The notes under the pieces were generated by a model. The model was not told the origin of the DNA. It saw nothing but the letters and a program-made list of their open reading frames with translations, and did not search any database. Made by a program: the position numbers and the translations under genes. DNA of 64,000 nt from the NCBI RefSeq assembly GCF_055900595.2, contig NZ_CM148325.1; one strand, written 5' to 3'. Positions 12,654-64,000 of this stretch are shown here, in pieces; position 1 is the stretch's first letter; the number at the start of each line of letters is the position of its first letter.

Positions 12654-14477
12654 TTAATCGTCTTTCGGTGCGCGGTTGGCGCGACGACGATCGTTTTCCG
12701 TCAGGTGACGTTTACGAATACGGATAGAGGTCGGAGTCACTTCTACCAGTTCGTCATCATCGATGAACTCCAGCGCTTGTTCCAGCGTCATGCGGATAGG
12801 CGGAACCAGAACAACGGCTTCGTCAGTACCGGAAGCACGCATGTTGGTCAGTTTCTTACCGGTCAGACAGTTTACAGTCAGGTCGTTAGAACGGCTGTGA
12901 ATACCGATAATCTGACCTTCGTAAACTTCTGCACCGTGACCGAGGAACAGCTTACCGCGATCCTGCAGACCGAACAGCGCGAACGCGACCGCTTTACCCT
13001 GACCGTTAGAGATCAGTACGCCGTTCTGACGCTGACCCACTTCACCCGGACGCACGTCGTCGTAGTGGCTGAAGGTGGAGTACAACAGACCCGTACCAGA
13101 GGTCATGGTCATGAACTCAGAACGGAAGCCAATCAGACCACGGCTTGGGATCACGTAGTCGAGACGTACGCGGCCTTTACCGTCTGGATTCATGTTTTTC
13201 AGGTCGCCTTTACGTTCGCCCAGCGCCTGCATCACAGAACCCTGATGCTGTTCTTCAACGTCCAGCGTCACGTTTTCATACGGCTCTTGTTTACGACCGT
13301 CGATTTCACGGAAGATAACTTTCGGACGGGATACCGCCAGTTCGAAACCTTCACGACGCATGTTTTCGATCAGAACAGACAGGTGCAGTTCGCCACGACC
13401 AGAAACGCGGAACGCATCGGCGTCTTCAGTTTCTTCTACGCGCAGCGCAACGTTGTGTACCAGTTCTTTGTTCAGACGATCCAGAATCTGACGAGACGTT
13501 ACGAACTTACCTTCTTTACCGCAGAACGGCGAGGTGTTAACGCAGAAGAACATAGAAACGGTCGGCTCATCAACGGAGAGTGCCGGCAGCGCTTCAACGT
13601 TTTGCGTGTCGCAAACGGTGTCAGAAATGTTCAGTTCGCCCAGGCCCGTGATCGCCACGATATCGCCAGCTTCCGCCAGATCGGTTTCGATACGTTCCAG
13701 ACCGAGGTGGCCCAGCACTTTACCGACTTTCGCGTTGCGGGTTTTGCCTTCGCTATCGATGATAGTAACTTGCTGGTTCGGCTTCACTTTACCGCGCTTG
13801 ATGCGGCCAATGCCGATAACGCCAACATAGCTGTTGTAATCGAGCTGAGAAATCTGCATCTGGAACGGACCGTCAAGGTCAACGTCCGGCGCAGGAACGT
13901 GGTCAACAATTGCCTGATACAGCGGGGTCATGTCTTCCGCCATATCTTCGTGGTCCAGACCGGCGATACCGTTCAGCGCAGAAGCGTAAACGATCGGGAA
14001 GTCCAGCTGCTCGTCGGTCGCGTCGAGGTTAACGAACAGGTCGAATACCTGATCCACAACCCAGTCAGGACGCGCGCCAGGGCGGTCAACTTTGTTGATA
14101 ACAACAATTGGCTTCAGGCCGTAAGCAAACGCTTTTTTGGTTACGAAGCGCGTTTGCGGCATCGGGCCGTCAAATGCGTCAACCACCAGCAGCACTGAGT
14201 CTACCATGGACATTACACGTTCAACTTCACCACCGAAGTCGGCGTGCCCCGGGGTATCAACGATGTTGATACGGTAATCATTCCATTTGATAGCGGTGTT
14301 TTTCGCGAGGATGGTAATCCCACGCTCTTTCTCCAAATCGTTGGAGTCCATCACGCGCTCTTGGGTTTCGGCACGAGAGTCGAACGTACCGGATTGTTGG
14401 AGCAGCTTGTCTACCAGGGTGGTTTTACCATGGTCTACGTGCGCGATGATGGCGATATTACGCAATTTTTCGATCAC
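12654..14477 (-). CDS. typA: Ribosome-associated translational GTPase BipA/TypA
   Basis: 607-aa ORF with G-domain motifs ([18 protein letters not shown]). Confidence 0.95.
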
Positions 14478-50527: not shown

Positions 50528-52770
<2,243 letters not shown>

Positions 52771-52783
52771 TTCCGGTCTCCTG

Positions 52784-53539
52784 TCAGAACTTATAACCAC
52801 GATGCAGCGCCACAACCCCTGCCGTCAGGTTGTAATAGTCGACACTTTCGAATCCAGCATCCTGCATCATAGCTTTCAGGGTGTCCTGATCGGGATGCAT
52901 GCGGATAGATTCAGCAAGATAACGGTAGCTGTCAGCGTCGTTCGCGACCAGTGAGCCAATACGCGGCAGCACATGGAAGGAGTAAGCGTCATAGGCCTTA
53001 CTTAACGGCTCGATAATCGGCTTCGAGAACTCAAGCACCAGCAGTCGGCCGCCAGGTTTCAGAACGCGATACATTGAACGCAGAGCTTTATCTTTGTCAG
53101 TGACGTTACGCAGACCAAACGAAATGGTGATGCAATCAAAGGTGTTATCCGGGAACGGCAGCGCCTCAGCGTTCGCCTGAACATACTCAACGTTGCCAAT
53201 CACACCAATATTACGCAGCTTCTCGCGGCCCATTTTGAGCATGGATTCATTGATATCAGCAAGGACCACTTTGCCAGTTTCACCCACCAGGCGGGAGAAT
53301 TTCGCTGTCAGGTCGCCAGTACCGCCTGCCAGATCCAGCACGGTCTGCCCACGGCGTACGCCGCTGCAATCAATCGTGAAGCGTTTCCACAAACGATGTA
53401 TGCCAAAAGACATCAAATCATTCATGACATCGTATTTCGATGCCACGGAATGGAAAACGTGAGCGACCATATCCGCTTTTTGTTCCTTCGCGACGGTCTG
53501 AAAACCAAAGTGCGTCGTTTCTTGTGACTTATCCACCAT
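52784..53539 (-). CDS. ubiE: Ubiquinone/menaquinone C-methyltransferase
   Basis: 251-aa ORF with SAM-binding LDLAGGTGD. Confidence 0.95.
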
Positions 53540-53633
53540 CTCAATGCCTGCTCATCAAAAAATTGTTCCAGAAGTGTAACAGATTGGGCGTCGATGCCCT
53601 AGATTTCTACCCGGCTTAACTACCCCCAATGGG

Positions 53634-55061
53634 CTAGCGCGACTGCTGATTATATTCATCATCGCGTTGATAAGCTTCATCATTCGGCTGCTCCGGAACC
53701 GACCGCAGTCGATACTCTTCATCCTGGCTCACCGCTTGTTCAGCCAAATCCGGATTAATCTCGCGTTTAATTTCTACCCCTAAACCGCGAAACGCTTCTG
53801 CTTGCGCCAGCACATTTCCGCGACCTGAAGAGAGTTTTTTCATTGCCTGACGATAGTTGTCCTGTGCTTTGTCCAGACTTTGACCAATCGCGGACATATC
53901 ATCGACAAACAAGCGCATTTTGTCGTACAACTTGCTGGCGCGATCGGCTATTTTCTGGGCGTTACGACTTTGATGCTCATAGCGCCAGAGGTTGGCGATA
54001 GTGCGCAGCGCCACCAGCAGCGTGGTCGGGCTAACCAGCATGATATTGTTTTTCAACGCTTCGGTGATCAGCTCCGGCTGGCGGTCAAGCGCCAGTAAAA
54101 AAGCGGGTTCAACGGGAATAAACATCAGCACGTAATCCAGGGTTCGCAGCCCCGGCAGCTGTTGATAATCTTTGCGTCCCAGCAAACGGATATGGTTACG
54201 CACCGACGCGATATGTTCCTGTAGCGCGCTTTCGCGGGTGTAGTCGTCTTCTGCGTTGAAATAGCGTTCATAGGCGACCAGCGTCATTTTTGCGTCGATC
54301 ACCACAACTTTGCCCTGCGGCAGCCGCACGATGACATCCGGCTGCATCCGCGAGCGGGCGTCATTTTCGATGCTGACCTGGGTTTCATATTCATACCCTT
54401 CACGCAGACCGGAAGCCTCCAGCACACGCGTCAATACTACCTCGCCCCAGTTGCCCTGGGTTTTATTGTCGCCTTTCAGCGCACGCGTCAGGTTGATCGC
54501 TTCCTGGGCCATTTGCGCGTTGAGCTGCTGGAGATTGCGTATTTCGTGAGTCAGGGTATGGCGTTCTTGTGCTTCTTTACCGAAACTGTCCTGAACCTGA
54601 CGACGAAAACCGTCCAGTTGTTCACGTAGTGGCGACAACAGGCTGTTCAGACTCTGACGGTTTTGCTCATCAACCCGGCGATTGCTGTGCTCGAAAATAC
54701 GGTTGGCGAGGTTTTCAAACTGCTCACTGAGGCGCTGTTCGCTGTTGATCATTTGGCGAATTTTATCGTCAGCATGTTGCTGTACGGCCTCCATTCGCGT
54801 GGTGACCTCACGCAGATCCGCCTCCAGCGAGGTGTTAATGCTTTGCAGACTGCGCACTTCATTATTGAGTAACTCGCACTCAGCACGCCAATGTTCGCTT
54901 TGGGTAATTTGTTGTTTTGCCGCACTTAACTCCGCGACCATCTCTTCACGTTCAGCGAATTGCTCGGCTTTTTGCTGCGCATGCTGATAACTGGCAATCA
55001 GCCAGCCAATCGCCACGCTCACCAACGCAATAACTGCGTAAACCATGATTGAGATATCCAC
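53634..55061 (-). CDS. rmuC: DNA recombination protein RmuC
   Basis: 475 aa from a GTG start preceded by GGAGG; N-terminal TM helix and coiled coil. Confidence 0.85.
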   Translation of the reverse strand: MDISIMVYAVIALVSVAIGWLIASYQHAQQKAEQFAEREEMVAELSAAKQQITQSEHWRAECELLNNEVRSLQSINTSLEADLREVTTRMEAVQQHADDKIRQMINSEQRLSEQFENLANRIFEHSNRRVDEQNRQSLNSLLSPLREQLDGFRRQVQDSFGKEAQERHTLTHEIRNLQQLNAQMAQEAINLTRALKGDNKTQGNWGEVVLTRVLEASGLREGYEYETQVSIENDARSRMQPDVIVRLPQGKVVVIDAKMTLVAYERYFNAEDDYTRESALQEHIASVRNHIRLLGRKDYQQLPGLRTLDYVLMFIPVEPAFLLALDRQPELITEALKNNIMLVSPTTLLVALRTIANLWRYEHQSRNAQKIADRASKLYDKMRLFVDDMSAIGQSLDKAQDNYRQAMKKLSSGRGNVLAQAEAFRGLGVEIKREINPDLAEQAVSQDEEYRLRSVPEQPNDEAYQRDDEYNQQSR

Positions 55062-55179
55062 AACGCCTCCAGCCTCATTACTTACCCGCACAAAATAGAA
55101 TTGTGCTGTACAAACGTCCAGTTTGAAAGAAGTTTCCTGCGAGGCGCTACGCAAAACGATCCTTAATTTTTATTATTTT

Positions 55180-55215
55180 ATCCCACAATATGAGACGTAG
55201 TTTATATTGTGGGAT
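55180..55215. promoter_or_regulatory. Perfect 12-bp inverted repeat (candidate IclR-type operator)
   Basis: atcccacaatat (55180-55191) and atattgtgggat (55204-55215) are exact reverse complements separated by 12 bp, about 60 bp upstream of the IclR-family gene. Confidence 0.5.
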
Positions 55216-55276
55216 ATATCACCTTTTCCCCACGTCATTATGTGGAACACTTCAGCAATATCATCAGGAGAAACGT

Positions 55277-56044
55277 ATGGCAGATACCTCTTCAACCACC
55301 GCTGGCGCACAAACGTTATTACGCGGGCTGGCGGTTCTTAATGCTGTTTATAACGGCTGCCATGACCTGAAAAGTATCGGCGAGTTCACCGGCACGACCC
55401 GGAGCACAACCCATCGTTTAGTCACCGTTCTGGTGGAACAACGCTACCTGCGCCACGTCCCAACGCAGGGCTACCAACTGGGCGCCAAACTGATCGAATT
55501 CGGTGCCAGAGCACTGGAAAGCACCTCGCTGTACGAAGTTGCGCTGCCCGTTTTGCAGCGTCTGGCCCGTTACACCCTGGACACCGTGCATCTGGGGATC
55601 GTTGAAGGCGGCGAAGTGCTGTATCTGGAGAAGATCAACAGTCAGCGTGGGCTGGAAATGCGCTCACGCCCAGGCCATCGCATGCCACTGGCAATCACCG
55701 GCATCGGCAAGGCATTGATCCTCAACCGAACAGAAGAAGAGTGGCGCACGCTGTTTAAGACCTGTGGTGATGAAACAAAACTGGGCACATTTATTCAGAA
55801 CATGCGTCGTTATGCCGCCAGTGGTTTTGCTTTTGATCTGGAAGAGAACGAGCCGACTATCCGTTGCGTTGCAGCGCCGGTTTACAACGCCCGGGATGAA
55901 ATTGTGGCGGCTATTTCTGTCGCCAGTACCACTACGTATATGTCACTGGCGCGTCTGGAAGAACTGGCACCTTACGTCAAATCCTGTGCAGAAGAGATAT
56001 CCGCTGAACTGGGCTGGGGTAAGCACGTCCACAAAAATAAATAA
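55277..56044 (+). CDS. IclR-family transcriptional regulator
   Basis: 255 aa from MADTSS with CAGGAG upstream; N-terminal HTH and C-terminal effector domain. Confidence 0.85.
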   Translation: MADTSSTTAGAQTLLRGLAVLNAVYNGCHDLKSIGEFTGTTRSTTHRLVTVLVEQRYLRHVPTQGYQLGAKLIEFGARALESTSLYEVALPVLQRLARYTLDTVHLGIVEGGEVLYLEKINSQRGLEMRSRPGHRMPLAITGIGKALILNRTEEEWRTLFKTCGDETKLGTFIQNMRRYAASGFAFDLEENEPTIRCVAAPVYNARDEIVAAISVASTTTYMSLARLEELAPYVKSCAEEISAELGWGKHVHKNK

Positions 56045-56067
56045 ACCATGACTAAAGGAAACGGCTA

Positions 56068-57072
56068 ATGTCGGGAAACACCTCATTTATTGCCCTGGAC
56101 TGGGGAACGTCATCGCTTCGGGCATGGCGTTTTGGCGACTCACCCAATCCACAAGAAAAACGTGAATTCCCGTGGGGGATCATGAAATTACCCTCCCAGG
56201 CAGCAACACGTGAGGACGCTTTCCACGATACGTTTTTACGTGTCTGCGGCGACTGGCTGGCACAATCCCAATGCCCGGTTCTGGCTTGCGGCATGATCGG
56301 CAGTGCGCAAGGGTGGCAACCCGCAGCTTATTTACCTTGCCCGGTCACTCTCGAGGGTCTGGCAAAGCAGTTGACGCCTGTTATCTACCAGCAGCAGACA
56401 ATGCTGCACATCATTCCCGGCGTGATTAAAGAAGGTGAAATGCCCGAAGTGATGCGTGGCGAAGAGACACAAATCTTCGGTGCTATCTCGATGGAACCGG
56501 CCCTGCAAAACGCGATCCGCCAGGGTATGCCTGTGCTGATTGGCTTACCTGGCACACATGCGAAATGGGCGGTAGTTGAAAACAACACCATTACCGATTT
56601 CCGAACCTTTATGACAGGCGAGTTATTTGATGTTTTATCCCGCCATTCGATTCTCGGTGCCACCATGCGTTCGGGAGATGAACCGCACTGGGATGCCTTC
56701 ACCCATGGGCTGAAATCAGCACAAGAGCATCATCAGACCGGATTATTATCGACGCTGTTTTCGACCCGTTCGCGCCTGCTGACCAGTAATCTTACGCCGT
56801 CCTCGCAGGGGGATTACCTTTCAGGATTACTGATAGGCCATGAATTATGCGGTCTGGCATCCAGTTTGCTACGTGATTTACCCGCCACAACACCGATCGC
56901 CTTAATCGGTAGCGCCACTCTGAACAGCCGCTATTCACAAGCATTCAGCCACGTTTTTCCCGACAGACAGCTACACGCCATTCCTAATGCCACTGAACAG
57001 GGGTTATGGCGAATCGCCCACGCTGCCGGGCTACTCTCCACCAACGCCAGGGAATGTACTCATGCCATTTAA
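56068..57072 (+). CDS. 2-dehydro-3-deoxygalactonokinase (DgoK)-like sugar-acid kinase
   Basis: 334-aa ORF; N-terminal FIALDWGTSSLRAW resembles the DgoK family start. Confidence 0.7.
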   Translation: MSGNTSFIALDWGTSSLRAWRFGDSPNPQEKREFPWGIMKLPSQAATREDAFHDTFLRVCGDWLAQSQCPVLACGMIGSAQGWQPAAYLPCPVTLEGLAKQLTPVIYQQQTMLHIIPGVIKEGEMPEVMRGEETQIFGAISMEPALQNAIRQGMPVLIGLPGTHAKWAVVENNTITDFRTFMTGELFDVLSRHSILGATMRSGDEPHWDAFTHGLKSAQEHHQTGLLSTLFSTRSRLLTSNLTPSSQGDYLSGLLIGHELCGLASSLLRDLPATTPIALIGSATLNSRYSQAFSHVFPDRQLHAIPNATEQGLWRIAHAAGLLSTNARECTHAI

Positions 57073-57691
57073 TACGCTTTTGCAAAAAACCGGGTTAGTC
57101 GCCATTTTACGCGGCGTGAAACCGGATGAGATTGTCGCCATCGGTGAAAAGCTGTATGCCGCTGGATTTCGCCTGATTGAGATTCCCATGAACTCGCCGG
57201 AGCCGTTGCAAAGTATCAGTTTACTGCGCGACGCCCTGCCTAAGGACTGCCTGGTCGGAGCCGGAACTGTGCTTTCGGTGGAGCAAGTCGTCGCGGTTAA
57301 AGAGGCTGGAGGCCAGATTATCGTAATGCCGCATTGCGATACTGCGGTGATCCGTCGTGCCCGTGCGCTGGGTATGTATTGTGCGCCTGGCGTCGCTACG
57401 CCCACCGAAGCTTTTGCTGCCATTGAACATGGCGCCAATGCCATCAAGCTGTTCCCGGCTGAACAAATTACGCCTGAAGTCACCAAAGCCTGGCGTGCGG
57501 TTATTCCACAATCCGTTCCGATGTTACCGGTTGGCGGTATCACTCCAGACACAATGGCGCGTTATCTGAGCCACGGCGCAAACGGCTTTGGCCTCGGTTC
57601 TGCGCTATATCGCCCCGGCATGACGCCAGAGCAAGTCTATGAAAATGCAGTACTGTTTATGAACGCATGGAACAATTTAAATAGCAAATAA
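57062..57691 (+). CDS. 2-dehydro-3-deoxy-6-phosphogalactonate/KDPG-type aldolase (DgoA/Eda-like)
   Basis: 209 aa from MPFNTLLQKTGLVAILRG; start overlaps the kinase gene stop. Confidence 0.75.
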   Translation: MPFNTLLQKTGLVAILRGVKPDEIVAIGEKLYAAGFRLIEIPMNSPEPLQSISLLRDALPKDCLVGAGTVLSVEQVVAVKEAGGQIIVMPHCDTAVIRRARALGMYCAPGVATPTEAFAAIEHGANAIKLFPAEQITPEVTKAWRAVIPQSVPMLPVGGITPDTMARYLSHGANGFGLGSALYRPGMTPEQVYENAVLFMNAWNNLNSK

Positions 57692-57715
57692 CTGATAAAT
57701 AAGGATATAAAAGCA

Positions 57716-58690
57716 ATGATAAAACATCTTACCTTACCGAAAAAAATGGCTGCAATGGTACTTCTTGCCGGCGCTGCCCTCAGCACTGCGCCTGTGCAGG
57801 CGGCCTCCTGGCCAACCAAACAGATCGAGTTAGTCGTACCCTACGCGGCCGGAGGCGGTACGGATCTGGTTGCCCGTGCCTTTGCTGATGCCGCCAAAAA
57901 CCATTTGCCCGTCAGCATCGGGGTTATCAATAAACCTGGCGGTGGCGGCGCTATCGGCCTGAGTGAAATCGCCGCTGCCCGCCCTAACGGTTACAAAATG
58001 GGTTTAGGCACGGTTGAACTGACCACCCTTCCCAGTCTCGGAATGGTGCGTTTTAAAACCAGCGACTTTAAACCCATTGCCCGTCTGAATGCGGATCCGG
58101 CTGCTATCACCGTCCGTGCCGATGCACCGTGGAATAGCTATGAAGAATTTATGACTTACGCCAAAGCGAATCCCGGAAAAGTACGCATTGGTAACTCAGG
58201 CACCGGAGCAATCTGGCATCTGGCGGCAGCTGCACTGGAAGACAAAACGGGCGTGAAGTTTTCTCATGTCCCATATGACGGCGCAGCCCCTGCCATTACA
58301 GGCCTGTTAGGCGGGCATATTGAAGCGGTTTCCGTAAGCCCAGGTGAAGTTATCAATCATGTGAAAGGCGGCAAGCTGAAGACACTGGTAGTGATGGCGG
58401 ATGAACATATGAAAACCATGCCTGACGTACCGACGTTAAAAGAGAAAGGCGTTGATCTCTCCATCGGCACCTGGCGCGGCCTGATTGTGTCGCAAAAAAC
58501 GCCGCAGGATGTGGTGGATGTTCTGGCAAAGGCAGCAAAAGAGACGGCTGAAGAGCCTGCATTCCAGGATGCGCTGCAAAAGTTGAATCTCAACTATGCA
58601 TGGCTTGATGGTGCCAGCTTCCAGACCCAAATCAACGAGCAGGAAAAGTACTTTGACGAGCTGCTGACTCGCCTGGGCCTGAAAAAATAA
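57716..58690 (+). CDS. Tripartite tricarboxylate transporter substrate-binding protein (TctC/Bug family)
   Basis: 324-aa ORF with signal peptide; Bug-family-like. Confidence 0.8.
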   Translation: MIKHLTLPKKMAAMVLLAGAALSTAPVQAASWPTKQIELVVPYAAGGGTDLVARAFADAAKNHLPVSIGVINKPGGGGAIGLSEIAAARPNGYKMGLGTVELTTLPSLGMVRFKTSDFKPIARLNADPAAITVRADAPWNSYEEFMTYAKANPGKVRIGNSGTGAIWHLAAAALEDKTGVKFSHVPYDGAAPAITGLLGGHIEAVSVSPGEVINHVKGGKLKTLVVMADEHMKTMPDVPTLKEKGVDLSIGTWRGLIVSQKTPQDVVDVLAKAAKETAEEPAFQDALQKLNLNYAWLDGASFQTQINEQEKYFDELLTRLGLKK

Positions 58691-58706
58691 TCCCGAGGTA
58701 CGGTCG

Positions 58707-59213
58707 ATGAACACAAAACAGTCTGTTGCTCAACTCGCCGTACCGCACCGCAAGCGCCTTTCATCCACTGTGGTGGTGGCGCTGTTACTTTGTGTGGTTG
58801 CTGGCGCGGTGATAATTAATGCCGCTGATTTTCCAGCAACTGCCATTGAAACGGATCCCGGTGCAAGTGCCTTCCCTACTTTCTATGCCTGCGCTCTGAT
58901 TGTGCTCGCTGTCTTACTTGTGATACGCGATCTTTTGCTGGCAAAACCAGTCCCTTGCGCCAACGCACAGGAAAAACCGGCATTCAGGAAAACGGCAACA
59001 GGAATTGCGGCAACCGCGTTTTATATCGTGGCAATGAGCTACTGCGGTTATCTCATTACTACTCCTGTTTTCCTCATCGTCATTATGGCATTGATGGGCT
59101 ACAGGCGATGGGTACTCACACCGGGTATTGCGCTGCTGTTAACGGCAATCCTCTGGTTGCTGTTTGTCGAAGCGTTACAGGTGCCATTGCCTGTCGGCAC
59201 ATTTTTCGAATAA
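58707..59213 (+). CDS. Tripartite tricarboxylate transporter small membrane subunit (TctB-like)
   Basis: 168-aa ORF with four predicted TM segments, positioned between TctC-like and TctA-like genes. Confidence 0.7.
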   Translation: MNTKQSVAQLAVPHRKRLSSTVVVALLLCVVAGAVIINAADFPATAIETDPGASAFPTFYACALIVLAVLLVIRDLLLAKPVPCANAQEKPAFRKTATGIAATAFYIVAMSYCGYLITTPVFLIVIMALMGYRRWVLTPGIALLLTAILWLLFVEALQVPLPVGTFFE

Positions 59214-59225
59214 CAGGGGCCTGCA

Positions 59226-60716
59226 ATGTTTGAAAGTGAACTTTTAACTCAGGGGTTTTCGACATTACTCAGTAATCCTCAGGCGCTGCTGTTTGCCACG
59301 TTTGGAGTGATGCTGGGTATTATGATTGGCGCTCTGCCTGGCCTGACAGCGACCATGGGTGTGGCGATTTTGCTGCCTTTCACCTACGGCATGGAGCCTG
59401 TTTCTGGCTTGTTGATGATTTGCGGTGTCTTTTTTGGTGGTGTGTATGGTGGTTCTATCACCGCAATTTTGCTCAAAATTCCCGGTACGCCTGCCGCCGC
59501 TGCCACCGCCATTGACGGATATGAGCTGACGAAGCAGGGAAAAGCCGGGCTGGCGTTAAGTGCCGCCACGTTCTCTTCTTTTAGCGGTGGAACGCTCAGC
59601 ATTATCGTATTGATGTTTCTCTCTCCGGTACTTGCCAGTTGGGCGTTGAAATTTAGTGCCTCGGAGTCCTTCGCCCTGGCAACCTTCGGACTGAGCATTA
59701 TTGCCAGTATTTCCGGTGAGTCACTGATTAAAGGGCTGATTGCCGGGGTTGGCGGATTGCTTATCGCAACGATAGGCCTTGATCCAATGGGCGGTTTTCC
59801 ACGCTTTACAGGTGGATTTGTGGAGCTGATGAATGTGCCATTTATCCCGGTGATGATTGGTTTATTTGCTGCTTCAGAAGCATTCCGCTCTATGGAGCAA
59901 AACCAGCAAATTCGTCAGGGGGCGAAGGTGGCTATCGGCAGTCTGTTACTGCCCTGGCAAACACTACGCCGCATCGCATTAACCATTTTGCGCTCATCAG
60001 GATTAGGGGTTTTTATCGGCATGATCCCCGGTGCGGGGGCAGATATTGCAGCTTTTGTTGCCTATAACGAAACTCGTCGTTTCAGTAAGACGCCTGAAAA
60101 CTTTGGTAAGGGTGAGATTAAGGCGGTGGCCTCCTGTGAGGCAGGCGCGAATGGCTGCACCGGTGGCGCATTGTTACCTATGCTGACGTTGGGGATCCCA
60201 GGCGATGCGGTAACTGCCATCATGCTGGGCGCGTTAACGTTACAAGGGATGCAGCCAGGCCCACTTATGTTTACCGACCACGGCGATATGGTTTATACGC
60301 TGTTTGTCGGCATGATCTTTTGTTACTTCATGCTGCTAGTTCTTGGACTGCTCTCTTTGAAAGTCATCGGTAACGTGGTGAAGATCCCCGGCAATATTCT
60401 CACGCCGATGATCCTCGCACTTTGTGTGGTCGGGACTTATGCGCTGAACAATAGCCTGTTTGATGTTGGCATTATGCTGATTGCAGGCGTGGTGGGCTAT
60501 TTCATGCAAAAAGGGGGGTATCCGGCATCACCCGTAGTGCTGGCATTGATTATGGGGCCAATGGCGGAAAGTAATTTTCGCCGTGCGCTGTCGCTTTCTG
60601 GTGGGTCACTCGACTTTCTGTATACCCGACCGATAACCCTGGCATTGCTGACACTGGCAGCCTTTACGCTACTGACGCCAATAATACGCAAAATTATGCG
60701 CTTACGGCGTCAGTAA
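59226..60716 (+). CDS. Tripartite tricarboxylate transporter large permease (TctA-like)
   Basis: 496-aa polytopic ORF. Confidence 0.8.
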   Translation: MFESELLTQGFSTLLSNPQALLFATFGVMLGIMIGALPGLTATMGVAILLPFTYGMEPVSGLLMICGVFFGGVYGGSITAILLKIPGTPAAAATAIDGYELTKQGKAGLALSAATFSSFSGGTLSIIVLMFLSPVLASWALKFSASESFALATFGLSIIASISGESLIKGLIAGVGGLLIATIGLDPMGGFPRFTGGFVELMNVPFIPVMIGLFAASEAFRSMEQNQQIRQGAKVAIGSLLLPWQTLRRIALTILRSSGLGVFIGMIPGAGADIAAFVAYNETRRFSKTPENFGKGEIKAVASCEAGANGCTGGALLPMLTLGIPGDAVTAIMLGALTLQGMQPGPLMFTDHGDMVYTLFVGMIFCYFMLLVLGLLSLKVIGNVVKIPGNILTPMILALCVVGTYALNNSLFDVGIMLIAGVVGYFMQKGGYPASPVVLALIMGPMAESNFRRALSLSGGSLDFLYTRPITLALLTLAAFTLLTPIIRKIMRLRRQ

Positions 60717-60770
60717 TTGATATCGCTCCCCGACGTTGGGGAGTATGAGACTGATGACAAACGCTAAATT

Positions 60771-60871
60771 GCCTGATGCGCTGCGCTTATCAGGCCTACC
60801 ACAGAAATGCAATATATTGAATTTGCATGCTTTTGTAGGCCGGATAAGGCGATCACGCCGCATCCGGCATG
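60771..60871. repeat. REP elements
   Basis: gcctgatgcgctgcgcttatcaggcctac and gtaggccggataaggcgatcacgccgcatccggcatg. Confidence 0.7.
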
Positions 60872-60901
60872 AACAAAGCACACGTTAACAACAATCGGAA
60901 T

Positions 60902-60928
60902 GCTCCCCTAAGCCAGGGAGCGTTTTTT
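60902..60928 (+). terminator. Rho-independent terminator, + strand orientation
   Basis: gctccc ... gggagc hairpin followed by TTTTTT; the T-tract overlaps the udp stop codon. Confidence 0.6.
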
Positions 60929-61691
60929 ATTTCAGCAGACGACGCGCCGCTTCCACCACGATTTTCACCGCATGGCTTTCGGTTTGTTTCATCGTCTCAG
61001 CATTCGGGATCTCTTGTTGGGTACGATTGACGATAACGCCCGCCACCATACCGGCACGAAGGCCCTGGCTTGCACACATGGTCAGCAGGGTTGCAGATTC
61101 CATTTCATAGTTCATTACGCCCATCGCCTGCCACTCTTCCATAGAACCTTTAAAGTGACGAACTACGCGACCAGAGTAAGTATCGTAACGTTCCTGACCT
61201 GGGTAGAAGGTATCAGAAGAAGCCGTCACGCCAACGTGAGTCGTCGCGCCGATGGATTTCGCAGCCTCAACCAGCGCGGTCGTACATTCGAAATCAGCGA
61301 CAGCCGGGAATTCCAGCGGTGCGAAGTGCAGGCTCGCGCCATCCAGACGAACAGACGCCGTGGTAACCAGGACATCGCCAACATTAATATGCGGCTGAAT
61401 AGCGCCCGTTGTACCGATACGCAGGAAGGTGCGAATGCCCAGCTGTGCCAGCTCTTCAACTGCAATAGAGGTAGACGGGCCGCCGATACCGGTAGAGCAG
61501 ACGATAACAGGTTTACCATCCAGCTCTGCACGCCAGGTGGTGAATTCGCGGTGAGATGCCAGCTTAACCGGCTTATCCATCAGCGCGGCGATCTTTTCCA
61601 CACGATCCGGGTCGCCAGGGACGATGGCAAGCGTAGCCCCTTGTAAATCGTTTTTAGTGAGGCCGAGATGAAAAACATCAGACTTGGACAT
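60927..61691 (-). CDS. udp: Uridine phosphorylase
   Basis: 253 aa from [28 protein letters not shown]. Confidence 0.95.
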
Positions 61692-61765
61692 ATACAACTC
61701 CTCTGTGAATCGGTTTAGTCAGAAGAAGCAAAAAGACACTTTACCGAAGGGTTTAACATTTTTTC

Positions 61766-61832
61766 GTGACACTCATCACCTTGATGCAAATGCGTTGCAT
61801 AAATTTACCCAGCAAAAGTGATGCGAATCACA
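61766..61832 (-). promoter_or_regulatory. udp promoter CRP-CytR-CRP array
   Basis: Two CRP-like sites (gtgacactcatcac at 61766-61779; gtgatgcgaatcaca at 61818-61832) flank a tgcaaatgcgttgca CytR-like repeat at 61784-61799. Confidence 0.65.
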
Positions 61833-61952
61833 TAAATCACTCTTCATTCTGCATGACTGCATAAAAGATGAGCCGATTCAGGCAATGTGATTTGTTGCAT
61901 GCTGACTATAGTTAACATTGCGCAACATTTTTATAAGGGTACGGAGAATACC

Positions 61953-62768
61953 ATGGCAACAACACAACAATCTGGATTTGCACCTGCTGCATCACCTCTC
62001 GCTTCGACCATCGTTCAGACCCCGGATGACGCGATTGTAGCAGGCATCACCTCTATCCCTTCACAAGGGGATAACATGCCTGCTTACCATGCCAGACCAA
62101 AGCAGAGCGATGGCCTACTACCAGTGGTCATTGTAGTGCAGGAAATTTTTGGCGTGCATGAACATATCCGCGATATTTGTCGCCGTCTGGCGCTGGAGGG
62201 GTATCTGGCTATCGCACCTGAACTTTACTTCCGCGAAGGCGATCCGAATGATTTTGCCGATATCCCTACGCTGCTTAGCGGTCTGGTAGCAAAAGTGCCT
62301 GACTCGCAGGTGCTGGCCGATCTCGATCATGTCGCCAGTTGGGCGTCACGCAACGGCGGCGATGTTCATCGCTTAATGATCACCGGATTTTGCTGGGGTG
62401 GGCGCATCACCTGGCTGTATGCTGCGCATAATCCACAACTGAAAGCAGCGGTGGCATGGTACGGCAAATTAACCGGCGATAAGACGCTGAATTCACCGAA
62501 ACAACCTGTTGATATCGCAACCGATCTTAACGCTCCGGTTCTCGGCTTATATGGCGGCCAGGATAACAGCATTCCGCAGGAGAGCGTTGAAACCATGCGC
62601 CAGGCGCTGCGGGCTGCTAATGCGAAAGCAGAGATTATCGTCTACCCGGATGCCGGGCATGCATTCAACGCCGATTATCGCCCGAGCTATCATGCCGAAT
62701 CTGCGAAAGATGGCTGGCAGCGAATGCTGGAGTGGTTCAGGCTGTATGGTGGGAAGAAGTCGCTGTAA
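61953..62768 (+). CDS. ysgA: Dienelactone hydrolase family protein
   Basis: 271 aa from MATTQQSG with GGAG upstream. The ORF track's upstream extension is rejected. Confidence 0.8.
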
Positions 62769-62775
62769 TGAGAAA

Positions 62776-62805
62776 AGACCGGGTGGTATTACCACCCGGT
62801 TTGGA
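62776..62805. terminator. Bidirectional terminator between ysgA and metE
   Basis: accgggtggtattaccacccggt hairpin flanked by A/T-rich stretches on both sides. Confidence 0.7.
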
Positions 62806-62807
62806 TT

Positions 62808-64000
62808 TTACCCCCGACGCAAATTCTGCGCCGCCTGCACCATGTTCGCCAGTGCCGCGCGGGTTTCTGGCCAGCCGCGCGTTTTCAGACCACAGTCCGG
62901 GTTGACCCACAGACGCTCTGCCGGAATGCGTTTTGCCGCTTTCTTCAGCAGGGACTCAATCCATTCCACGCTCGGTACGTTTGGCGAGTGAATGTCATAG
63001 ACGCCAGGACCGATTTCATTCGGATAATCAAACTCTTCAAACGACTCCAGCAACTCCATGTCGGAACGCGAGGTTTCGATTGTGATGACGTCAGCATCCA
63101 GCGCCGCAATCGAATCCATGATGTCGTTGAACTCGCAGTAACACATGTGAGTGTGGATTTGCGTGTCATCTTTCGCTACGGCAGCGTTGATACGGAAAGC
63201 CTCCACGCCCCACTGAAGATAGGCATCCCAGTCGCTGCGACGCAGCGGTAAACCTTCGCGTAGCGCCGGTTCATCAATCTGGATGATGCCAATTCCAGCC
63301 GCTTCCAGATCGGCCACTTCATCACGCAGCGCCAGCGCAATTTGTTTGGCGATGGTTTCACGGCTGACATCTTCACGCGGGAACGACCAGCAGAGAATGG
63401 TCACCGGACCAGTCAGCATCCCTTTCACCGGTTTGTCGGTCAGCGATTGCGCATACTTCGCCCACTCCACAGTAATCGGTGCCGGGCGGCTAACGTCACC
63501 AATGACAATCGGTGGCTTCACGCAGCGGGAACCGTAGCTCTGTACCCAACCGTTTTGCGTAAAGACAAAGCCATCCAGGTGCTCGCCAAAGTATTCCACC
63601 ATGTCATTACGCTCGGCCTCACCATGCACCAGCACATCCAGACCCAGACGTTCCTGCTCAACAATGGCCTGCTTGATATGTTCTGCAATGCCCGTACGAT
63701 AGTTGTTGGCGTCGAGATTACCCTTTTTGAAATCCAGACGCAGGGTACGGATTTCTGTGGTTTGCGGGAAAGAGCCAATCGTGGTGGTCGGCCAGGCTGG
63801 CAGTTTAAAACGCGCACGCTGGGCTTCAGCACGCACTTCATAAACGTTCGCACGCTGACTGTCCTGGGCGGTGATCGCCGACAGACGCTTTTCTACTGCC
63901 GGATTATGTACACGAGTAGAGTGACGACGCGCCTGAATCGGAGCGCTCCACCCTGCCAGAGCTGCCGTATCACCACTGTTCAGCGCATCGCGCAGCAATG
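62808..64000 (-). CDS. metE: Cobalamin-independent methionine synthase, C-terminal part (5' end beyond window)
   Basis: - strand frame ends ...[15 protein letters not shown]; the frame stays open to the window edge. Confidence 0.9.

Follow-up and report, generated by a model that had tools for sequence, protein, structure and literature searches.

A six-gene islet between rmuC and udp of Escherichia coli predicted to mediate uptake and catabolism of a sugar acid

The DNA analysed in this study (hereafter the window) is a stretch of 64,000 nucleotides from contig NZ_CM148325.1 of RefSeq assembly GCF_055900595.2. Between rmuC (53634–55061, minus strand), which forms the left flank, and udp (60927–61691, minus strand), which forms the right one, it carries an islet in which six open reading frames (ORFs), all on the plus strand, fill positions 55277–60716. 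They encode, in this order, an IclR-family regulator, a DgoK-like kinase, a DgoA-like aldolase and the three components (TctC, TctB and TctA) of a tripartite tricarboxylate transporter (TTT). A preliminary description of the window, made from the sequence alone, had listed the same gene content, which was confirmed by matches to Pfam and NCBIfam profiles; the span that it gave (55062–60930, i.e. the entire intergenic-to-intergenic stretch) was essentially right. A RefSeq record that is 100% identical across the entire query annotates all six genes, the kinase as 2-dehydro-3-deoxygalactonokinase and the aldolase as 2-dehydro-3-deoxy-6-phosphogalactonate aldolase. The locus is an uncharacterised but conventional sugar-acid operon, and the object itself is already annotated, widespread and briefly mentioned in print.

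In E. coli K-12 MG1655 udp adjoins rmuC, with a spacer of 140 bp, and the six genes are absent, as expected from the preliminary description, which had placed the two genes side by side in K-12. Alignment of the junctions with those of K-12 delimited the islet-specific DNA to positions 55157–60929 (approximately 5.77 kb); at this site K-12 has about 44 bp with the udp terminator hairpin. The genes of the islet are separated by gaps of 12–24 nt, apart from those of the kinase and the aldolase, which share an 11-nt overlap, and one upstream region of 215 bp precedes the regulator gene. Because of the tight gaps and the overlap, a single transcript starting from this region is the simplest reading of the arrangement.

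The kinase (334 aa; 56068–57072) belongs to the DGOK family of 2-keto-3-deoxy-galactonate-type kinases and represents the "long" type found in Burkholderiales. It matched the Pfam model PF05035 (DGOK) over its full length (2e-89, model positions 1–281 of 281), and in the PDB it matched 3r1x and 3t69 (E approximately 1e-36). Its identity to DgoK of K-12 is 35%, and to the DgoK proteins of Burkholderia, Pararobbsia and Achromobacter 47–49%; no equivalog model of NCBIfam matched it. The enzyme is predicted from its family to act on 2-keto-3-deoxy-D-galactonate (KDGal) with ATP.

The aldolase (209 aa; 57062–57691) is of the DgoA type, i.e. related to class I 2-keto-3-deoxy-6-phosphogalactonate aldolases. 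It reached 322.9 bits with the NCBIfam model of the DgoA subfamily (NF006600; cut-off 207), whereas all Eda models of that collection scored it below their cut-offs. The protein is 46% identical to DgoA of K-12 and matches the PDB entry 2v81. Alignment with DgoA and Eda revealed that the catalytic residues (Schiff-base Lys129, catalytic Glu40 and Arg22) are retained, and that the residue aligned with Val154 of DgoA and Thr161 of Eda is Val in the islet protein (the motif reads PVGGI in the window, AVGGV in DgoA and PTGGI in Eda). In structural work on DgoA, this position reportedly distinguishes galacto-configured from gluco-configured substrates. The homology searches place kinase and aldolase in the DGOK and DgoA-type families and not in unrelated ones, and the chemistry foreseen in the preliminary description, phosphorylation of a 2-keto-3-deoxy acid followed by class I aldol cleavage to pyruvate and a triose phosphate, agrees with what these family assignments predict.

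The remaining three genes encode a periplasmic solute-binding protein of the TctC/Bug family (324 aa; 57716–58690; Pfam TctC, 3e-54), the small membrane subunit TctB (168 aa; 58707–59213; Pfam TctB, 2e-20) and the large permease subunit TctA (496 aa; 59226–60716; Pfam TctA, 2e-151). They are adjacent, with gaps of 12–16 nt, and by its component content the transporter is a genuine TTT system, for which binding-protein-dependent carboxylate transport is predicted and whose ligand and energisation we infer. Read by eye, the N-terminus of TctC resembles a signal peptide with an AxA-type end (VQA). Could the system simply import citrate or another tricarboxylate, with the kinase and the aldolase as unrelated passengers? 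The family names TctA, TctB and TctC are all that favours this explanation, which we consider extremely improbable. Across genera the transporter genes are always linked with those of the kinase, aldolase and regulator, and relatives of TctC occupy sugar-acid clusters. Moreover, REL606, the strain of the long-term evolution experiment, carries the intact operon, yet it is the textbook example of a strain that does not grow aerobically on citrate. The closest solved relatives of TctC are 4x9t (E 3e-99) and a Vibrio protein (E 1e-63). The former, TctC of Polaromonas, is an apo structure whose ligand is not known, and the ligands of known TTT systems are in any case very diverse (PMC5812351), which also speaks against a reading based on the family name.

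Several known systems resemble the islet in part. With the dgoRKADT operon for D-galactonate catabolism it shares the families of the kinase (DGOK) and of the class I aldolase (DgoA type), and hence the predicted products, pyruvate and glyceraldehyde-3-phosphate. However, the two proteins, at 35% and 46% identity, are only distant paralogues of DgoK and DgoA, and none of DgoD, DgoT and DgoR is encoded in the islet: there is no counterpart of the dehydratase DgoD, an IclR-type regulator stands in place of the GntR-type DgoR, and TctCBA in place of DgoT, a symporter of the major facilitator superfamily. The order regulator-kinase-aldolase, with no dehydratase in the cluster, is found in IclR-DgoK-DgoA clusters of Burkholderiales (Burkholderia cepacia, Pararobbsia silviterrae). 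In contrast to the islet with its acid transporter, these clusters, which belong to the D-galactose De Ley-Doudoroff pathway, continue with genes for a sugar dehydrogenase, a lactonase, an aldose epimerase and a sugar ABC importer, and hence start from galactose. The KdgR/KdgT/KdgK/Eda system for 2-keto-3-deoxy-D-gluconate likewise combines an IclR-family repressor and a dedicated importer with a kinase and a class I aldolase, but it uses a PfkB kinase rather than DGOK, the Eda-type Thr rather than Val and a transporter of another family, and its genes are scattered in E. coli, whereas those of the islet form one operon. Finally, the three-component architecture is common to the characterised TTT systems, i.e. 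TctCBA (citrate), TctABC of Halomonas (galactarate/glucarate), the system of Vibrio sp. C42 (unsaturated alginate oligosaccharides) and that of Polaromonas (4X9T); in none of them, unlike in the islet, is the transporter coupled to a kinase of the DGOK family and a DgoA-type aldolase.

The regulator (255 aa; 55277–56044) possesses both an N-terminal helix-turn-helix domain of the IclR type (Pfam HTH_IclR, 9e-8) and a C-terminal effector domain (IclR_C, 1e-36). It reaches the cut-off of no curated equivalog model in NCBIfam, the best scores being those for BhcR (140 bits, cut-off 350) and KdgR (123.5 bits, cut-off 275); among solved structures it matches 1mkm and the effector domain of KdgR (1ysp). 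By these scores it is a member of the IclR family without assigned specificity. Its start in RefSeq, 55277, is preceded by AGGAG 6 nt upstream. A longer in-frame ORF begins at 55190, but is probably unused and only a product of automatic ORF prediction.

Upstream of the regulator gene, where homology to the K-12 spacer stops at 55156, lies an islet-specific leader (55157–55276, plus strand), which was aligned among the window, B2, E. whittamii and Klebsiella. It contains a perfect 13-bp inverted repeat, TATCCCACAATAT-N12-ATATTGTGGGATA (55179–55216), in which the longer ORF mentioned above would begin. The window, B2 and E. whittamii have the same two arms but differ in the 12 bp between them, a pattern that fits an operator. 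We therefore regard the repeat as a candidate operator for the IclR regulator.

The preliminary description had considered TTT systems to be rare in Escherichia. The system is indeed absent from K-12, but it is not rare: tctA alone, in a more sensitive search, was found in 1,456 of 5,426 complete E. coli genomes, nearly always as one chromosomal copy, and the full islet (at least 80% coverage) in 1,452 of the 5,426, so that about 73% lack it. In one E. coli genome tctA is 80–90% identical to that of the window, and one tctA match is located on a plasmid. Among the carriers are ST131, ATCC 11775 (the type strain, which belongs to B2) and three laboratory strains of E. coli B, namely AS19, BL21(DE3) and REL606. 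All six genes are annotated as intact and free of pseudogene flags in each of the RefSeq records inspected (the window-identical record and those of ATCC 11775, AS19, BL21(DE3) and REL606). In the full-text literature we found no functional study of the rmuC-udp islet; the only mention is one sentence in a paper on the nearby tkt1 island of B2 strains, which refers to a 5-kb islet of six ORFs without known function (Li et al. 2012; PMC3349570). The papers comparing BL21 or E. coli B with K-12 that we examined do not discuss it.

This set of six genes, identically ordered and likewise located between rmuC and udp, is present in E. whittamii, Klebsiella spallanzanii, Klebsiella indica, Buttiauxella warmboldiae and Pseudocitrobacter cyperus. 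Brenneria izadpanahii carries a copy of the operon at a different locus (L045, 10111–13839), and the six-gene order was also detected in a metagenome-assembled genome (MAG) of a soil proteobacterium (L008). The regulator-kinase-aldolase-TctCBA unit thus occurs in Escherichia, Klebsiella, Buttiauxella, Pseudocitrobacter, Brenneria and the soil MAG, and no dehydratase gene was found within any of the six-gene units examined in them. The species scan with the binding protein was based on exact 8-residue words, so its negatives are valid for close relatives only; the copies of Buttiauxella, Pseudocitrobacter and Brenneria escaped it and were detected with the kinase instead. In the Brenneria copy the aldolase has 175 aa, with the C-terminal part unaligned, TctA has 459 aa and the gene gaps are wider, which suggests that this operon is decaying. 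In the soil MAG, tctA is followed by a gene of the SMP-30/gluconolactonase family (13178–14086).

The term "island" in the preliminary description implies a recent insertion, which is not borne out, given the shared site in other genera and the lack of a mobility signature. No integrase, transposase, tRNA gene or flanking direct repeat was found in the islet and its flanks, and the GC content is 0.50–0.57 both inside the islet and in the flanks; the locus has none of the hallmarks of a mobile genomic island, i.e. mobility genes, tRNA genes or direct repeats, and atypical composition. Synonymous divergence between the window and the B2 allele is 0.07–0.23 for the islet genes and 0.26–0.27 for rmuC and ubiE. 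All six islet genes are under purifying selection, with ratios of nonsynonymous to synonymous divergence (dN/dS) of 0.01–0.25 in this comparison. Between genera, the amino-acid identity of TctC (79–87%) and TctA (86–91%) is similar to that of RmuC (79–84%); the regulator (65–72%), aldolase (60–69%), TctB (50–59%) and kinase (48–59%) evolve faster.

The common site, the absence of mobility genes and repeats, the matching GC content and the selection on the genes argue for an old locus and against a recent insertion. The simplest reading is that of an old, patchily retained locus, perhaps exchanged among lineages via recombination within its conserved flanks. Recent acquisition as a mobile genomic island, or decay to a functionless remnant, would be in keeping with the absence of the islet from K-12 and about 73% of complete E. 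coli genomes, and with the degraded look of the Brenneria copy. Nevertheless, we judge this very improbable, since the position is common to several genera, the genes are annotated as intact, synonymous divergence is lower than or similar to that of the flanks, and the dN/dS values, the composition and the missing mobility features all contradict it.

As to its more distant ancestry, the regulator, kinase and aldolase match proteins encoded in the same order in Burkholderia, Pararobbsia and Achromobacter (identities of 54–57%, 47–49% and 58–61%, respectively), and the nearest TctC relatives outside Enterobacterales are those of Comamonadaceae. On the strength of these matches, a betaproteobacterial origin of the operon appears likely.

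Taken at the level of the pathway, it is highly probable that the islet couples sugar-acid uptake to the kinase and aldolase of the lower branch of the De Ley-Doudoroff route. We propose that the six genes would form one IclR-controlled operon for scavenging a galacto-configured C6 sugar acid. Periplasmic TctC would capture the acid with high affinity, and TctA and TctB would move it through the inner membrane; the DGOK-family kinase would phosphorylate it at C6, and the DgoA-type aldolase would cleave the product to pyruvate and glyceraldehyde-3-phosphate. The IclR protein would repress the operon at the 13-bp palindrome until the putative inducer, the acid or its phosphate, binds.

We suggest, though only tentatively, that KDGal itself is the transported species. 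The window strain also has an intact dgoRKADT operon elsewhere in its genome, and the DgoR repressor responds specifically to D-galactonate (PMC12288454). A second, separately regulated kinase and aldolase, maintained by purifying selection, would make more sense if the imported compound did not induce dgo. The regulator may point in the same direction, as its nearest named relatives include KdgR, a sensor of a 2-keto-3-deoxy acid. That no enterobacterial copy has a dehydratase gene is weak evidence for import of KDGal, since the related IclR-DgoK-DgoA clusters of Burkholderiales are likewise without one and a complete dgoRKADT operon is present elsewhere in the genome.

The binding proteins may supply a further indication. 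Those of the six-gene type share Tyr/Phe43, Thr163 (or Ser) and Ala165 (window numbering), and their dehydratase-linked relatives carry Ala/Thr43, Asn163 and Ser165; of the putative pocket positions compared, only these three split the groups. This difference would be consistent with a ligand other than that of the dehydratase-linked proteins, and hence possibly with KDGal. Eleven pocket residues of a Vibrio TTT-C protein were also considered as ligand discriminators, and were dropped because nearly all are conserved throughout the clade.

The genomic context of the TctC relatives favours another substrate. Those at 52–58% identity adjoin genes for galactonate dehydratase (L024, and a DgoD-like protein in L040) or for sugar-acid dehydratases of the IlvD type (L023, L038); one of them (55% identity) is encoded in a LysR-dgoA-dgoD-dgoK-tctC cluster (L024), in which DgoD clears its cut-off of 311 with 672 bits. 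In the high-GC loci of these relatives, ORFs were filtered by GC content at third codon positions and mapped by tblastn, as greedy calls gave spurious ORFs on the opposite strand. By this evidence, the islet would import D-galactonate as a high-affinity alternative to DgoT; DgoD of the core genome would convert it to KDGal, and the islet enzymes would supplement or replace DgoK and DgoA. Such a division of labour is known from the related Burkholderiales clusters, which work with a dehydratase encoded in trans, and dgoD is present in the window strain and in 5,020 of the 5,426 complete E. coli genomes. The lactonase gene that follows the operon in L008 would also be in accord with it. On the other hand, D-galactonate would induce dgoRKADT and thereby leave the two islet enzymes superfluous, although purifying selection maintains them in different genera; no enterobacterial copy has acquired a dehydratase gene; and the three putative pocket positions differ from those of the dehydratase-linked relatives. 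All in all, we consider import of D-galactonate somewhat less likely than that of KDGal, but a close alternative to it. About 400 of the 5,426 E. coli genomes gave no megablast match to dgoD.

Import of KDGal has to be set against several observations that weigh against it. The signature positions 43, 163 and 165 were mapped via homology to a docking-based model of another protein. Kinase, aldolase and regulator have their closest relatives in dehydratase-free galactose/galactonate clusters of Burkholderiales, and the dehydratase neighbours of the TctC relatives suggest D-galactonate as the ligand of the clade. A sugar lactonase gene comes after the operon in the soil MAG. Moreover, we know of no established natural source of free KDGal in the gut.

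In the loci of Variovorax and related ones (L010–L017, L023, L031, L038) a gene for a GhrB-like 2-hydroxyacid dehydrogenase lies directly 3' of the tctC homologue, which hints that the Variovorax TctC relatives could handle a 2-keto-aldonate. The contexts of TctC relatives are varied, and they include tetronate-like clusters with PdxA-like and 2-hydroxyacid dehydrogenase genes. In addition, the Vibrio protein, second among the solved relatives, has unsaturated alginate oligosaccharides as ligands and retains the equivalents of Gly48, Gly210, Thr252 and Arg254, and the kinase has only 35% identity to the characterised DgoK of E. coli. These findings would be compatible with another sugar acid that ends as a 6-phospho-2-keto-3-deoxy-hexonate, e.g. 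a different hexonate, or a 4-deoxy-5-keto-uronate derived from unsaturated uronates, with the further enzymes encoded elsewhere. We regard this as unlikely: the kinase is a full-length DGOK protein, the aldolase scores above the DgoA cut-off and has the DgoA-type Val, and no reductase, isomerase or dehydratase is encoded in any enterobacterial copy.

If KDGal is the ligand, it would be a private nutrient for B2 and extraintestinal pathogenic E. coli, E. coli B and a few other enterobacteria, one that K-12 cannot use, and it might be cross-fed by gut microbes degrading galactans or galactonate. Wild-type K-12 was reportedly found by Cooper in 1978 to be unable to use D-2-oxo-3-deoxygalactonate (KDGal) unless mutated, which would be in line with its import by the islet. 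The transporter might then, as we suggest with somewhat greater reserve than for the ligand itself, be the first TTT dedicated to the import of a free 2-keto-3-deoxy sugar acid. The assignment would give a function to an operon that roughly one in four sequenced E. coli possess, among them pandemic ST131, BL21(DE3) and REL606, could explain a nutritional difference between K-12 and the B and B2 strains, and would add a sugar-acid ligand to a poorly charted transporter family, the closest structure (4X9T) being still ligand-less. The chemistry itself is conventional and the gain incremental. Beyond the preliminary description, the analysis delimits the islet exactly, shows that BL21 and REL606 carry it and that it is syntenic across genera, and contributes a likely betaproteobacterial ancestry, a candidate operator and two explicit substrate hypotheses.

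At the right end of the islet, a GC-rich hairpin (60726–60743), recognised by reading the sequence, lies directly 3' of tctA. In the B2 type strain, where tctA and udp are 34 bp apart, a lone hairpin with a T-run forms their shared terminator. In the window the interval contains a pair of repetitive extragenic palindromic (REP) sequences arranged as in a bacterial interspersed mosaic element (60745–60902): a REP (60771–60799) and an inverted REP (60835–60869) with an AT-rich palindrome between them, in which we recognise what we take to be the REP consensus. The pair has a near-copy of the terminator hairpin on each side, CTCCCCGACGTTGGGGAG and CTCCCCTAAGCCAGGGAG. The REP stretch alone matches several sites per genome in E. 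coli, with approximately 87% identity, and the Rfam search of this region gave sub-threshold matches to the REP-derived naRNA4 and ES036. The pair is absent from ATCC 11775, and only 8 genomes, all of the lineage of the window, cover the REP portion of the query (60717–60929). The REP pair is outside the operon and was observed in this lineage only.

A second terminator-like hairpin with a T-run (60897–60926) abuts the stop codon of udp. This gene ends with CTG AAA TAA in islet-bearing Escherichia and with CTG TAA in K-12, which makes Udp one lysine longer in the former (765 nt, 254 aa, ending Leu-Leu-Lys-stop, as compared with 762 nt, 253 aa, ending Leu-Leu-stop). The K-12 udp stop aligns with the extra AAA codon (window 60927–60932), so the right junction meets the end of the gene. 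The islet carriers Buttiauxella and Pseudocitrobacter have a Udp of 253 aa.

The core genes flanking the islet (50528–55061 and 60927–63998) are unusually divergent for E. coli: ubiE, rmuC, ysgA and metE are approximately 95% identical to those of K-12, and ubiE, rmuC and ysgA 94–96% identical to those of B2 (metE lies outside the B2 locus compared). A ubiB-rmuC segment at least 99% identical to that of the window occurs in only about 10 of the 5,426 complete genomes, namely those of human stool isolates (E200086 from Mali among them) and one dog isolate. Judged by these comparisons, the window represents a rare, deep-branching E. coli lineage.

In the window strain ysgA and metE are adjacent (61887–62808), an arrangement shared with K-12. 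Between these genes, B2 strains and E. coli B have an island, which in B2 is the 16-kb tkt1 island and in BL21 encodes a cysteine hydrolase, a DUF2877 protein, fdrA, a DUF1116 protein, arcC, a cytosine permease and a LysR-type protein. The adjacency of ysgA and metE indicates that the window strain carries the rmuC-udp islet without its usual neighbour island.

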